From: Lentimonas sp.
Lineage (GTDB): Bacteria > Verrucomicrobiota > Verrucomicrobiia > Opitutales > Coraliomargaritaceae
Assembly: GCA_049889815.1 (NCBI GenBank)
Contig: JBMHCR010000012.1
Coordinates: 738 to 64,737 of the forward strand
DNA: 64,000 nt
Reading direction: 5' to 3'
A program made the position numbers and the translations under genes. This document shows, piece after piece, positions 41,345-59,949 of the stretch. Numbering within the stretch: position 1 is the stretch's first letter; each line of letters begins with the position of its first letter. Under the pieces are notes generated by a model. The model made no database searches, was not told where the DNA came from, and was given only the letters and a program-made list of their open reading frames with translations.

Positions 41345-42787
41345 ATGTTTCACCCTCAACTGAACGTTACTCGGCGCGATTTCCTTAGATCATCCGCAGC
41401 ACTCAGTACGGTGTCTATATTGCCCAACTACGTGGCGCTTGGGAATCAATCCAATAGTGAAACTGCAGCTCCTAGTGAGCGCGTGAATGTTGCTTTTATC
41501 GGTACTGGCAATAAGGGCTACCGTAATCGTAAGGCCTTTCTCGCGAGTGCGGGCGAATATATGAATGTGGTCGCGCTTTGTGATGTGCATTTGACTCAGG
41601 ATGACGTCCAGGAGTCGGCCGCTGAGCATCCACAGGCGAAGTTATTTTCCGACTATCGCGAGCTGTTTGATCAGATGGCAGACGAGATTGATGCGGTGGT
41701 AGTATCGACCCCCGATCATACGCATTTCCCAGCGACGATGCTCGCGATGCACTACGGCAAACACGTCTGGTGCGAGAAGCCGCTCGCGCATACTTTTGGT
41801 CAATGCGAGCGCCTCATGGATCTGGCTGAGCGTTCAGGTGTCGTCACTCAGATGGGCAATCAGGGGCACTCGGGATCGAACTACTTCCAATTTAAGGCAT
41901 GGAGTGAAGCGGGCATCATGAATGACATCACTAAAATTGATGCCTATCAAGTGGGAGGATCGCGTTGGAATACCTGGGCGAAGAACCCGAAGCTGGTGAC
42001 TTATCCCGAGGATCCGATGCCGGAAGGTATGGAGTGGGACATCTGGTGCTCGGTGTCTCCAGAAGTGCCGTTTAGTAAGTTGATGCATCCGAGTAACTGG
42101 CGCGGCTGGTATGAATTTGGTTGTGGTAAGCTTGGAGATTGGGCTGCGCATGTCATTGATACACCGCATCGTTTCTTGAAACTCGGTTTTCCTGAGAAAG
42201 TGACTGCTGTGACGCGCGAGAATGTGCATCCGTTGATCTATCCAAGTGGCTCCACGATTCGTTTCAACTTCCCTGAGCGAGGTGAGGGCTTGCCCGCTTG
42301 TGAGCTTACCTGGTATGATGGCCCGGGTAACTTTCCGGAAATTCCTGAACAGTATCGCGATTTAAAGAGCGAGCAACCCGGCTATGTGGCGCCTGAGGGA
42401 GTCAAGCCGCCGCGAAGTGATTATGTCGGTAAAGTTATTTACGGTAAAGACTTGGTGTTCCGCGGGGTCTCTCACGAGCAACCGCTACGGATTGTTCCTA
42501 AGCAGAAGTATCTAGATATGCGTCGCGACTTGCCGCGCTTCCCTCAGAAGAATTCCAATCACTGGCGCAACTTTATCTTGGCGTGTAAGGGCGAAGAAGA
42601 AACCCGTTCGCCTTTCAGTGTTGCCGGTCCGCTTTCGCAGGTTTTGGCGATTGGTATGATTTCGCAACGACTCGGAGGTGAGCTTCATTTCGATCGCGAT
42701 ACCAAGCGCTTTACGAATAGCGACGATGCGAATGCGCTTCTGGATCCCGCGCCACGCAAGGGCTGGGAGGAGTTTTATACTCTGTAA
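41345..42787 (+). CDS. Tat-exported Gfo/Idh/MocA-family oxidoreductase
   Basis: Twin-arginine signal [14 protein letters not shown], Rossmann [21 protein letters not shown]. Confidence 0.85.
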
Positions 42788-42829
42788 GCGGGCTCTGGTA
42801 TTCGCAATGTCTTCAGTTGCTAACGCGTG

Positions 42830-45250
42830 ATGTTGTCGTTGAGGTCCCCGTTCTATTGGCTTACGTCACTACTTACGATTGTGCCGTTTGTTCCGGCTTT
42901 TGCCGATGTGCCGTTGATAGGAAGTCAAATTCCGGATGTGAGCTTGCTTGATGGTGATTTCGAAGAACTGAAAGCAGGTTGGAGAACTCCCAAGCAGTCG
43001 CCGTATTGGATAACTGAAGTTGTTCGAGGCGGTGGACGTGTAGGGGTAGCAGAAGGCAAGATGATGAATAACGGCGCAACGCTTGCGACCGTAGAGTCTG
43101 TGCCACTTGAAAATGCAGCACTCGACTCTCTACGAGCGGGTGATGTGCTCGCTTGGCGTTTCGCATCGAATACCGAGTATCCTTGTGATGGACGAGTGAG
43201 TTTTGCATTGGTCTTTGCAGATGTGGAACGAATGCTTGTAAGTCGTGTAGAAGTTCCAAGTTGCCCAGAGCCTCCTCGAGTGTATGAAGGTTTTTATACG
43301 GTAACGGAGGCAGATGTCCGCCTAGGGCAGTTAAGCGCCAAGTTTCATTTGGAAACGACACATGGGATAAAGGTGTATATCGACTGGGTTGATCTAAGGT
43401 TATTGCGCCAACAAAGCTCAGGTCCTGCGGCGCTGGCAGCCAATGTAAGTGAGGGTGGAGTTGAGCTCACTTGGTATGGTGAGCCTGGACTACGCTATGC
43501 GGTTTACCGGAGTCACTCTGAGCGTGGCGGATACGAACGCGTCGCGACCGATGTTGTCGGCAATAGCTGGATCGATACATCGACGATCAATGGTAAAACT
43601 TATTTTTATGTGGTAAAACCGCTGGGTGAGAACCATGTTTCCTCAAAGGTGGTTTCGATTCAGAAGTTGGACTCAGTCGCGCCCGCTGCGCCACAGGATC
43701 TCGTTGCTACTGGCAAGGATTGGGTCGTGCAGCTAGCTTGGACGACTCAGGAGCGTGATATCGAATACTATAAAGTCTATCGTAGTGATGACGGAGGTGA
43801 AAATTTTGCCTGTATCGCGCCCTATGTGACTGGCTTGAAATTTGAAGACATGTTGCCAATCAAAAGCGCGCAGAATAGCTATGCCGTGCGTGCGGTGGAT
43901 TACAGCGGTAACGAAAGTGAGTTGTCTGCTCAATCGATGGCGAGTGTTCAAGCGGTTCGTGGGGCGTCATTCAGTGACTTGATTTTGCCGATGCCAATCC
44001 ATAAGGAGCTGCGCTCAGACCTTTGGGGGGCTGCGGGCGTCTTGCCACGCGACCCGGACAATGGAGTCGAGCATCCAGACTGGTCTTACTGGGGCGGTAA
44101 AATTATACAGAGCACCGAGGATGGAACCTATCATATGCAGGTGGTTCGCTGGCTGGAAGGCGATCGCAGAGGGCATTGGGCATGGCCACATTCAACGGTT
44201 GCGCATGTGGTATCGGATTATCCGACCGGTCCTTATCGGGTCGTTAAAGATCTTGCTTATGACTATCAGGGCGGACTCGGACATAATACCAACATCATAC
44301 CCTTGAACGATGGCAGTTATGCGATGTATTCCTTGATCAATTGGAAGAGCATGATGCTGCATTCGGATAGCCTGAATGGTCCCTGGGAAGTGCTGGGTGA
44401 AATACAAGTGAATGTGCCAAAGAATTACAAAAATCCGTATCGACTTGAACGAAACTTATCTGGTGTGCATTGCGAGGATGGTAGCTTTTTAATTGTTACC
44501 AAGGCGGGAGCCATGATGCGTAGCGAAAATGGGATTTTAGGTCCCTATGAGGTAGTTTCTGAAACGACGGATACGAACCAGACAATTCCCGAACGGTATC
44601 GTCATTCGAATTATGAGGATCCGACGCTGTGGTATGACGGGGTGCAGTATCATAAAATTATTAATGCCTTTCTGGACTATCGAGCGATTTATTTGCGGTC
44701 CCCTGACGGGATTCATTGGAAATACGAAGACGGTCTAGCATATACGCCCACGTGCACCGTCTATGAAGATGGCACCCGGACATTTTGGTATAAGGTCGAG
44801 CGTCCAAATGTCTTACAGGATGCTTACGGTCGTGCTACGCACTTGTCGTTAGCGGCGGTCGACGTGAAAAAGGATGATGACTATGGAAATGACAACCACA
44901 GTTCCAAGCATCTTGTGATTCCTCTGGTGGTGCATAAGCGTGTTTCCATGCTGAATACGGAACCAGTCAGTTCGACGACTGATCGTATCCGAATTCTGAT
45001 ACACTCTGAACTTGGATTTGATGCGACTCAGGATATTGACCTCGAATCCCTGCGCTTCGGTGCTGCAGAAGTCGTTAACTTCGGCGGCGGTTCGAAAGTG
45101 CTATCCACAGAAGAACATTCGCAGGGTTTGATTGTCGAATTTGATGGAGAGGGCAACGGTATCAAAGCGGAGAATTTCGTCGCTAAATTGATCGGTCGCA
45201 CAAAGGATGCTGAACTGATTGTCGCCTTCTCAAAATTACAGTTCAATTGA
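42830..45250 (+). CDS. secreted multidomain protein: N-terminal beta-sandwich-like region, two Fn3-like modules, C-terminal putative five-bladed beta-propeller glycoside-hydrolase-like domain
   Basis: Signal peptide. Two Fn3-like repeats ([20 protein letters not shown]...KTYFYVVKP and [25 protein letters not shown]...[13 protein letters not shown]). The C-terminal part has [17 protein letters not shown] and VERPNVL motifs reminiscent of GH43/GH117-type propellers. No family can be assigned by eye. Confidence 0.45.
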
Positions 45251-58248: not shown

Positions 58249-58593
58249 GGCTTTTCAGGAAAGGTAGCGGGCATGTCCGCATGCCCGCCGTGGCTTCGTC
58301 GAAGGTTGGTCCCAGCGCTATTCAAATGTTTGGGTGAATGCTGGTCCTAAGCGTGTGTTGATTATCACTCGTGCGAATGATCATGAATGGAAAGCGACGA
58401 CTCCAGTTCTGCAAGAGGTTTTGGGATGCGGCATCGATTGACTTTCAATTAGTGAAGCGTGACTAGCAATTTCCTAAAAAAGGGTTTCGTAAAGGTGTGG
58501 ATATTCTACACTTTTTGGTGGGTCTCTGACATCTACTGAAATAGCATCTTTATGTTAATTTTTGACGCTAAAATACCTAACTAAACCCTATTT

Positions 58594-59949
58594 ATGAATC
58601 GTAGAAACTTCTGTAAAACCGCAACTGTCGCCGGAGTGGGCTTCTGGGCAGCACCAAACTTTTCTATTGGTCAGCCGGGTCAATCCGCGAATGCCAAGGT
58701 CAATATCGGCTGGATCGGCGTTGGTGGCATCGGTCAATACGGTCTGCGTCGCAGTTTGGGGGAGAACATCGTAGCACTGTGCGATGTCGATTGGCGCGCG
58801 AATCCCGGCGGCTATGAAAAACGTGCGGCGTTGAAGCACGCACAAATGGCGCCCAAGGCGGAGCGCTTTATCGATTTTCGTAAGATGTTCGATAAGATGG
58901 GGGATGAAATCGATGCCGTCGCGATTTCGACACCGGACCACACACATTTTTCGATTGCGATGGAGGCGATGCGTCGTGGCAAACACGTGATGGTGCAGAA
59001 GCCGCTCGCGCATAACATTCACCAAGTGAGAACCCTTCAAGCAGCAGCCAAGAAGTATCAGGTGAAGACCGTAATGGGCAATCAGGGGCATTGCTTCGAG
59101 GGTGCGCACCGTATTGTCGAATGGTATCGAAAGGGCATTCTCGGCGACGTCGAAGAAGTGCATTGCTGGACAGACCGTCCGCGGATGCCATGGTTTACCT
59201 TTGAGCCACTGCCCGTTGAGACCGCACCCGTGCCCGAAGGTGTCGATTGGGACCTGTGGCAGGGGCCGGTCGCCGAGTGCGAATATAGTGAAGACTATAT
59301 GCCGCTGCGATGGCGCGCTTATTGGAAGTATGGTTGCGGTGCATTGGGAGATATCGGTTGCCACACGTTGGACGTGCCGTTCTGGGCGTTGGATCTGGGC
59401 TATCCGGACACGGTCGAAATCGCCGAGATGGATCGTTGGGAGAACAGCGATTATACACCACGCGGTGCGCATGTGATTTATCATTTCCCTGCCAAGGGTG
59501 ACCGCAAGGCCGTGAAGGTGCATTGGTATGAGGGTAAATATCGCCCGGAGCTGCTGGAAGGTATGACCGAGCTACCGCCGAACGGCATGTATATGAAGGG
59601 CAGTAAGGAAACGGTTTACCATGAAGACATGCGTGCGCAGTCGCCGCGCTTATGGCCCTCCGAGCGCATGCTTGAGTATCGCGATATCATTAAAGAAAAG
59701 ACCATCCCGCGCTCACATTCCGGTGATCCACATACCGATCTGTGGGCTGCTATCCGAGGTGAGATCGATGAGTGTGGTTCCAACTTCGAATATGCCGCGC
59801 CGCTCACTGAAATGGTGCTGCTCGGAAGTATGGCGATCCGCGCGAATGAGACCATCACCTGGAATCCTGAAACCATGGAATGCTCCAGCGCTCTCGCTCA
59901 GCAGTGGGTGAAGGAACCCGTTCGCGAGGGTTGGGAATATACCTTATAG
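58594..59949 (+). CDS. Tat-exported Gfo/Idh/MocA-family oxidoreductase
   Basis: Twin-arginine signal [44 protein letters not shown]. Confidence 0.85.

Follow-up and report, generated by a model that had tools for sequence, protein, structure and literature searches.

Organisation of the Gfo/Idh/MocA genes and their putative export signals

The stretch of DNA examined here, a 64-kb window from the Lentimonas sp. assembly GCA_049889815.1 (contig JBMHCR010000012.1), carries five open reading frames (ORFs) for oxidoreductases of the Gfo/Idh/MocA family, here called Gfo and designated by their first nucleotide. ORFs 41345, 55021, 56920 and 58594 lie in an island of sulfatase genes, and 14137 lies in a second cluster; all five were found where a preliminary description of the window had placed them. 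Our subject is the group of four paralogs (41345, 56920, 58594 and 14137) that begin with a twin-arginine motif, and their relationship to known glycoside 3-dehydrogenases. The island, which runs from 36.4 kb to the window end, also contains eight genes for S1 sulfatases and single genes for a beta-agarase of glycoside hydrolase family 50 (GH50), a PhoD-like phosphatase and a small c-type cytochrome, together with two genes for secreted proteins of orphan families (Table 1). The agarase is its one classical glycoside hydrolase, in agreement with the earlier remark that such enzymes are few here. Since housekeeping genes occupy positions 0-36 kb (among them those for DNA ligase, a topoisomerase subunit and a GTP-dependent phosphoenolpyruvate carboxykinase, as assigned from their translations), the island is chromosomal.

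The PF01408 Rossmann domain was recognised in all five Gfo ORFs (43.9-86.2 bits; gathering score 24), and the four proteins bearing the RR motif also passed the gathering score of the PF19051 C2 domain. Their N-terminal motifs read TRRDFLR (41345), SRRDFLK (56920), NRRNFCK (58594) and NRRDFLR (14137), each followed by a mildly hydrophobic stretch of ~20 residues. Except for TIGR01409 in 56920, the Pfam and TIGR models of the twin-arginine translocation (Tat) signal stayed below cut-off for the four; Pfam TAT_signal gave 17-21 bits (cut-off 22.7) and did not match 58594. In 23 orthologues of 58594, conservation of residues R3, R4 and F6 reaches 90% or more, and the RR motif is present in 111 of 118 relatives from the fetched loci. 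The preliminary description had assigned to the four both a twin-arginine signal and an EKPL motif. An RRxF motif is indeed present in each, but EKPL is found only in 41345, 56920 and 14137; 58594 has QKPL, and QKP is invariant across its clade. The lysine of this motif is shared by all five Gfo proteins, 55021 having AKPI. As described earlier, 55021 has no signal when read from ATG 55021, the likeliest start and the one that agrees with the JGI gene call. Its best PDB match is YvaA (E 3e-12), and its affinity to BT2158/BT2159 in NCBIfam is no better than E 3e-4. Pairwise identity among the four paralogs is 27-31%; judged from their sequences, they are old separate subtypes and not recent duplicates.

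The close packing reported around 58594 was confirmed. The gene ends in TAG (59947-59949) and is followed after one base by the ATG of a beta-helix gene (59951), whose 3' end (stop at 61303) overlaps the next sulfatase gene by 11 nt from ATG 61293, or by 98 nt if the longest ORF is taken. ATG 61293 gives a signal-peptide-like start and agrees with the JGI gene call in a sister strain (discussed later).

Family placement of the four paralogs

For all four paralogs the best NCBIfam model was NF058561, the BT_2158_fam glycoside 3-dehydrogenase (351 bits for 58594, 284 for 41345, 248 for 14137 and 144 for 56920), with the runner-up model at 87 bits or less. The alignment to NF058561 is full-length for 58594, 41345 and 14137, and takes in only the N-terminal 340 positions, about two thirds, for 56920. 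A PDB search, run for 58594, 41345 and 56920, returned as top matches 8TDF/8TDH, the structures of AL3 from Alistipes, with E 9.5e-64 over residues 33-433 of 58594, 2.9e-54 for 41345 and 4e-23 for 56920. AL3 and its counterpart in Bacteroides thetaiotaomicron, BT2158, carry a twin-arginine signal, hold a non-exchanging NAD and oxidise glycosides at C3, after which 1,2-elimination and hydration fall to TIM-barrel (AL1/BT1) and DUF1080 (AL2/BT2) enzymes; reduction of 3-ketoglucose probably recycles the cofactor, cytochromes being named as an alternative (10.1101/2024.03.25.586180; Liu et al. 2021, PMC8121099). The paralogs resemble AL3 and BT2158 in fold, in PF19051 and in the twin-arginine motif at the N-terminus.

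Other characterised enzymes of the fold were matched far less well. Glucose-fructose oxidoreductase (GFOR), aldose-aldose oxidoreductase, inositol dehydrogenases and DgpA aligned over the Rossmann domain only (E 1e-8 to 1e-21). The DgpA C-glycoside 3-dehydrogenases (7XR9, 9M3D), in which C3 oxidation likewise prepares an elimination, are cytoplasmic enzymes and, unlike AL3, match the paralogs over the N-terminal domain alone (E 1e-11 to 1e-21). GFOR of Zymomonas mobilis shares Tat export and a non-dissociating cofactor, which serves a ping-pong redox reaction between two sugars (cited in PMC8121099); unlike what we propose for the paralogs, it oxidises C1 of free glucose, and its similarity is limited to E ~1e-8 in the Rossmann domain. 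The glucuronide 3-dehydrogenase P2B11 Oxido1 (8TDI) indicates that enzymes of this class can adapt to anionic sugars, 6-sulfated glycosides among them (10.1101/2024.03.25.586180). Unlike the paralogs, it is from a Gram-positive organism and is flanked by two TIM-barrel lyases, and its match is weak (E 1.5e-7 to 56920).

The preliminary description had also raised a GH109-type activity. On that explanation the paralogs would be self-contained NAD-dependent glycosidases that perform oxidation, elimination, addition of water and reduction in one active site, with no lyase. GH109 alpha-N-acetylgalactosaminidases have the Rossmann fold, an export signal of Tat type and transient C3 oxidation in common with what is seen or proposed here, and the window holds no lyase gene; moreover, Gfo genes in marine fucoidan polysaccharide-utilisation loci (PULs) are routinely labelled GH109, a Planctomycetota fucoidan study naming GH109 among its PUL enzymes (PMC11685898). 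However, the only GH109 structure among the PDB matches was 6t2b, at E 6.5e-6 over residues 34-186 of 58594 (the Rossmann domain), compared with E 9.5e-64 to 4e-23 for AL3, and at 1e-5 no GH109 structure matched 41345 or 56920. The GGHGG string of the acid/base loop, which we take to be the GH109 signature, is absent from all five Gfo proteins, and DUF1080 genes adjoin Gfo genes in orthologous loci (discussed later). A GH109-like mode of action thus appears very improbable. On the strength of these comparisons, the four Tat-type paralogs fall solidly with AL3/BT2158, and not with GH109, GFOR or the inositol dehydrogenases.

Conservation of active-site residues

With an offset of 29, the numbering of 8TDF reproduces the AL3 residues Gln161, Arg192, Trp195, Asp248, His252 and Tyr349 listed for its active site in the preprint of Nasseri et al. 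(10.1101/2024.03.25.586180). Equivalents of the (E/Q)KP lysine, Gln161 and His252 are kept in all four paralogs, and that of Asp248 in three, so that AL3, BT2158 and these three have a catalytic Lys/Gln/Asp/His set in common: K145, Q173, D265 and H269 in 41345; K129, Q159, D253 and H257 in 14137; and the lysine of QKP, Q164, D253 and H257 in 58594. ORF 56920 retains K135, Q163 and H251. The Arg192 equivalent is kept in 58594 (R195) and 14137 (R190) only, being Gly in 41345 and 56920; the 58594 residues, R195 included, are invariant in its clade. At Tyr349, near which the alignment is uncertain, we found Arg in 58594, His in 41345, a gap in 14137 and Val in 56920. The paralogs could therefore plausibly share the chemistry of AL3, while their substrates, as read from these alignments, surely differ from those of AL3; the differing sugar-binding residues among them suggest that they probably act on different, non-glucose sugars.

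We also weighed the explanation that the four are periplasmic free-sugar or polyol dehydrogenases or reductases, of the GFOR, aldose-aldose oxidoreductase, inositol dehydrogenase or 3-keto-sugar reductase types, which do not start cleavage. Electrons would then pass between sugars or to cytochrome c, and a 3-keto-sugar reductase would simply close the redox cycle. The weak N-terminal matches to the first three types are what such a role would predict; in addition, a gene for a small c-type cytochrome adjoins 56920, that paralog lacks the Asp248 equivalent, suggesting that at least one of the four may differ in role, and tandem Gfo genes could divide oxidising and reducing tasks. Yet those matches lie 40-50 orders of magnitude below the match to AL3 and are confined to the Rossmann domain, whereas both the PF19051 C-terminal domain and the His252/Asp248 pair agree with AL3; nor are genes with PSCyt domains enriched near Gfo genes in other genomes. 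We regard this role as unlikely.

Lyase/hydratase partners at orthologous loci

DUF1080 genes, the partners of the AL3/BT2158 pathway, were found next to Gfo genes in orthologous loci (L003, L005 and L089). L003 has the order Gfo (56920-type), DUF1080, Gfo (58594-type, 70% identical). Genes of the 56920 type often lie directly upstream of the 58594 type, and in Lentimonas the 345-nt gap between the two shows no DUF1080 relic. In Pontiella agarivorans, the order is sulfatase, DUF1080, Gfo (58594-type, 56%), sulfatase, Gfo (41345-type, 45%), in surroundings that include GH29, GH95 and GH2 genes, a gene for a lambda-carrageenase-like protein and further sulfatase genes. Similarly, P. sulfatireligans has a 41345-type Gfo gene (44%), a sulfatase gene, a gene for a FAD protein, a second sulfatase gene and DUF1080, and then a homologue (66%) of the 807-aa protein whose gene directly follows 41345 in the window. 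The pairings of 56920-type with 58594-type genes, and of 41345-type genes with the 807-aa family, thus recur across phyla, and there with a lyase/hydratase gene. The glycoside 3-dehydrogenase function, one of those suggested in the preliminary description, is accordingly the best supported: it draws on the NF058561 and 8TDF placement, on the catalytic residues in three of the four and on DUF1080 in orthologous loci.

Six further loci (L013, L040, L056, L073, L075 and L077), belonging to Verrucomicrobiales, Pirellulales, Phycisphaerae and Sedimentisphaerales, have 5-9 Gfo paralogs in tandem, with DUF1080 genes in between, an arrangement that suggests modular batteries of the oxidative pathway.

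A proposed oxidative route of glycoside cleavage

We favour, at a probability of roughly 55%, the reading that the four RR proteins are periplasmic enzymes of the AL3/BT2158 branch that start glycoside cleavage by oxidation, elimination and hydration. They would be exported folded through the Tat system with a non-exchanging NAD. Each would oxidise an oligosaccharide at the 3-OH of its non-reducing-end sugar, giving a 3-keto-glycoside; a DUF1080 or TIM-barrel lyase/hydratase, which in Lentimonas would be encoded elsewhere in the genome, would then eliminate the aglycone and hydrate the glycal. Re-oxidation of the bound NADH would come from reducing the 3-keto sugar once it is released, with a different acceptor, for instance a cytochrome, as a possibility. 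Because the genes are co-transcribed with those for exo-sulfatases, two putative glycanases of orphan families and the GH50 agarase, the likeliest substrates would be desulfated (or 6-sulfated) oligosaccharides from red- and brown-algal sulfated galactans and fucans, and oxidation may be coupled to desulfation. A precedent for sulfated sugars is a related dehydrogenase system that cleaves 6-sulfated glycosides (10.1101/2024.03.25.586180).

Several observations weigh against this reading. With regard to the proteins, the four paralogs share only 24-35% identity with AL3, and their NF058561 scores fall well short of the equivalog cut-off of 750 bits, which the rebuilt aligned 8TDF fragment passes with 766 bits. 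The sugar-binding residues of AL3 (Arg192, Trp195 and Tyr349) are not retained as a set, 56920 has Gly at the Asp248 equivalent, and 58594 differs from AL3/BT2158 further in having QKP instead of EKP. With regard to the partner enzyme, tblastn found no DUF1080 homologue in the 64-kb window, and the sole TIM barrel there (11520) is psicose-3-epimerase-like and has no signal peptide; unlike the AL3/BT2158 systems, the window has no DUF1080/TIM lyase in cis, nor a SusR-type regulator, and the four paralogs belong to an aerobic marine verrucomicrobium, embedded in its sulfatase/agarase operons. To our knowledge, no family member from the PVC group (Verrucomicrobiota, Planctomycetota and Kiritimatiellota) has biochemical evidence. 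The published abstract of Nasseri et al. reportedly mentions homologues from soil and from the sea. Sugars of the agar type have the galacto configuration, and their 3,6-anhydro end lacks a free 3-OH. AL/BT3 do not accept galactosides (10.1101/2024.03.25.586180); a change of substrates in the paralogs would fit that rejection, as the island targets galactans and fucans. The remaining points come from a survey of gene linkage.

Linkage to sulfatase genes and possible substrates

We surveyed 80 loci with 58594-type genes (38-85% identity), one from each of 80 species, collected by a pattern scan of GTDB representative genomes; neighbours within 300 nt and 10 kb of these anchors were counted with locally built hidden Markov models. 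A sulfatase gene lay within 300 nt in 9/80 loci and within 10 kb in 21/80, the corresponding figures being 7/80 and 18/80 for DUF1080 and 16/80 and 22/80 for another Gfo gene. Among the 72 same-strand ORFs that directly adjoin the anchors, the commonest Pfam families were Gfo (12), sulfatase (6) and DUF1080 (5). The density of DUF1080 genes fell from 0.42 per 10 kb in the nearest bin to 0.09 in the farthest, and that of Gfo genes from 1.22 to 0.27; on account of this decay, we consider the Gfo-DUF1080 and Gfo-Gfo links to be specific. Sulfatase density, conversely, was flat (0.3-0.65 per 10 kb at all distances), 59/80 loci had no sulfatase gene within 10 kb, and 45/80 had neither a sulfatase nor a DUF1080 gene within that distance. 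Since sulfatase genes become no denser near the anchor and most loci have none within 10 kb, a specific conserved linkage of the two families is not demonstrated. The sulfatase link is one of islands, in a subset of mostly marine lineages, and the data used do not show an excess over the sulfatase-rich genome background.

These figures suit the explanation that the four are glycoside 3-dehydrogenases whose sulfatase setting is incidental, the two families, both hugely expanded in the PVC group, merely sharing polysaccharide-utilisation islands without any coupling to desulfation. The size of the Gfo family is very great (with 58594 as query, E <= 1e-30 gives 994 clusters at 50% identity and E <= 1e-3 gives 20,391), and neither L003 nor the closest orthologue, L006 (85% identical), has a sulfatase gene at its locus; in the ~17 kb of L006 we found no DUF1080 or second Gfo gene either. 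Against a chance association stand the operon-tight spacing in the window, with 1 nt and then an 11-nt overlap leading into a sulfatase gene, and the mixed Gfo/sulfatase strings in another phylum (Pontiella) and in Puniceicoccaceae, Oceanipulchritudo, Pelagisphaera, Pirellulaceae and Seonamhaeicola loci. Further, 7/12 orthologues at 50% identity or more have a sulfatase gene within 10 kb. An incidental setting is thus the less probable account, with perhaps one chance in several, and a special link of the Gfo enzymes to sulfated sugars is plausible.

There is, finally, a slim chance that the 58594 clade and its sister paralogs are specialised for anionic sugars, still sulfated or uronic, and that they would, with no DUF1080 in cis, complete the reaction themselves or through the translationally coupled, GH91-like beta-helix protein. 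We raise this because QKP is invariant in the 58594 clade, in which a near-invariant Arg also occupies the position of AL3's 2-OH-binding Tyr. If this specialisation were real, it would amount to an oxidative cleavage system specific for sulfated glycans, able to bypass linkages or patterns of sulfation that have no hydrolase of their own.

Neighbouring genes

The features of the island and of the second cluster are listed in Table 1.

Table 1. Genes of the sulfatase island and of the second Gfo cluster (positions are those of the 64-kb window)
Feature	Position	Strand	Basis and remarks
Second cluster: xylose-isomerase-like TIM barrel (11520), ThuA-like (12401 and 13319), Gfo (14137-15489), DUF3500 (15464)	11520..16498	+	Pfam
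Three sulfatase genes	36463..41055	-	PF00884 three times; divergent from 41345
Tat-signal Gfo/Idh/MocA oxidoreductase, 41345-type, 480 aa	41345..42787	+	PF01408 + PF19051; NF058561
807-aa secreted protein, orphan family, putative glycoside hydrolase	42827..45250	+	CBM-like + 2 FN3 + beta-rich domain
S1 sulfatase (CNPSR)	45255..46880	+	PF00884; signal-peptide-like start at ATG 45255
S1 sulfatase (CAPSR)	47024..48871	+	PF00884
192-aa secreted protein between two sulfatase genes	48890..49468	+	Kept in sister strain L001
S1 sulfatase (CAPTR)	49475..51034	+	PF00884
PhoD-like phosphatase + DUF7800, within co-directional sulfatase/agarase string	51095..52549	+	PF09423, PF25077
GH50 beta-agarase	52639..54900	+	Agarase_CBM; PDB 5z6p E 3.9e-207, 4bq2 E 1.2e-196
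Cytoplasmic Gfo/Idh/MocA oxidoreductase, no signal, AKPI	55021..56226	+	PF01408 only
Small secreted c-type cytochrome, 162 aa, PSCyt1 domain, CLRCH	56229..56717	-	PF07635 E 6.5e-6
Tat-signal Gfo/Idh/MocA oxidoreductase, 56920-type, 442 aa	56920..58248	+	PF01408 + PF19051; NF058561
Tat-signal Gfo/Idh/MocA oxidoreductase, 58594-type, 451 aa, nearest AL3 of the four	58594..59949	+	NF058561
Secreted right-handed beta-helix protein, GH91-like orphan family	59951..61303	+	PF05048 E 1e-10
S1 sulfatase (CVASR variant)	61293..62729	+	PF00884
S1 sulfatase (CTPSR), runs past window end	62741..64000	+	Translation

We examined the beta-helix protein encoded at 59951 as the missing lyase, or as a dedicated partner of the Gfo enzyme, a role that its position had invited, and rejected it: in the three contexts read its homologues have no Gfo neighbours, and its modelled fold is GH91-like. 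The family is small and well conserved (122 clusters) and occurs in marine degraders of algal glycans, with Pontiella, Rhodopirellula, Zobellia and Cyclobacterium represented, and in Epulonipiscium. In the three contexts read, the homologue lies between two GH32 genes and sulfatases (Pontiella), directly after SusC/SusD (Zobellia) or among unrelated genes (Rubripirellula), in none of them with a Gfo neighbour, and the family is absent from all 80 Gfo loci. In an AF2 model (pLDDT 87.6), the nearest folds were GH91 DFA-IIIase/inulin lyases, the best Foldseek match being the DFA-IIIase 5zky (E 6e-8, TM 0.57, 14% identity). The protein probably represents an undescribed family of glycan-active enzymes; its co-transcription with 58594 in Lentimonas still stands.

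The 807-aa protein, considered as a possible hidden DUF1080 or GH16-like module, matches no Pfam or NCBIfam family. Its 96 homologue clusters come from marine glycan degraders, in which the family occurs in loci of GH29 fucosidase and sulfatase genes (Zobellia and Planctomycetes) and beside DUF1080 (P. sulfatireligans). The AF2 model has a mean pLDDT of 90.5, and its Foldseek result is dominated by the FN3 domains. It could be a hydrolase of fucans or galactans that has yet to be classified.

The gene for the stand-alone cytochrome (56229-56717), also conserved in L001, converges on 55021, which encodes the cytoplasmic Gfo protein, and diverges from 56920. A role of its product in re-oxidising bound NADH is possible. 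The survey did not bear out a conserved electron acceptor of this kind: PSCyt genes lay within 10 kb of the anchor in 9/80 loci, with no decay over distance.

ORF 14137 lies directly 3' of two ThuA-like (PF06283) genes, whereas 41345, 56920 and 58594 have no ThuA neighbour. The cluster (11520-16498), with no sulfatase nearby, has a ThuAB-like arrangement, which in other bacteria is associated with formation of 3-keto-disaccharides (cited in PMC8121099). The pairing of Gfo and ThuA at 14137 is that of ThuAB in Sinorhizobium and Agrobacterium; unlike that system, the window has three paralogs without ThuA and no ABC transporter of a thu operon.

Among the sulfatase genes of the island, the ORF at 36463-37791 (minus strand) stands apart from the others: its N-terminus reads MQSRPNVVMLVADDH, in which no signal peptide can be recognised. 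A cytoplasmic product or a miscalled start may account for this. The sulfatase gene at 62741, which the preliminary description did not mention, starts 11 nt beyond the preceding one. No Pfam or NCBIfam family matched the 192-aa protein. Promoter and terminator scans over 54.8-64 kb gave signals at shuffle level.

A JGI metagenome contig (L001) from a sister strain is 98.7% identical to window positions 48594-61311 and unrelated beyond them. The break (61311 in the window, 12718 in L001) falls at the start of the sulfatase gene 3' of the beta-helix gene; past it, L001 encodes a sulfatase-GH43 fusion, a Sde182_NH-like protein and a further Tat-type Gfo protein. The break is a strain-level swap of island content.

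Implications for glycan degradation in PVC bacteria

Taken as a whole, the interpretation offered in the preliminary description is partly supported. The literature searched contains no paper tying DUF1080 or Gfo genes to sulfatases in marine bacteria. In the Lentimonas genes we see a known pathway in a divergent form with several paralogs, placed in an ecological and genomic setting that is new for it, and not something categorically new.

In the Verrucomicrobiota, Planctomycetota and Kiritimatiellota there are dozens of Tat-signal Gfo and DUF1080 paralogs without an explained role, and marine studies usually record these genes as 'GH109'. The window supplies clonable candidates, with four diverged paralogs of which two form a conserved gene pair, and the Pontiella loci available for comparison include the lyase. 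If modules for oxidation, elimination and hydration do act together with sulfatases, part of the breakdown of the recalcitrant glycans fucoidan, porphyran and carrageenan would have been missed by surveys based on carbohydrate-active enzyme families, and estimates of which organisms degrade these carbon-storing sulfated algal polymers would change.

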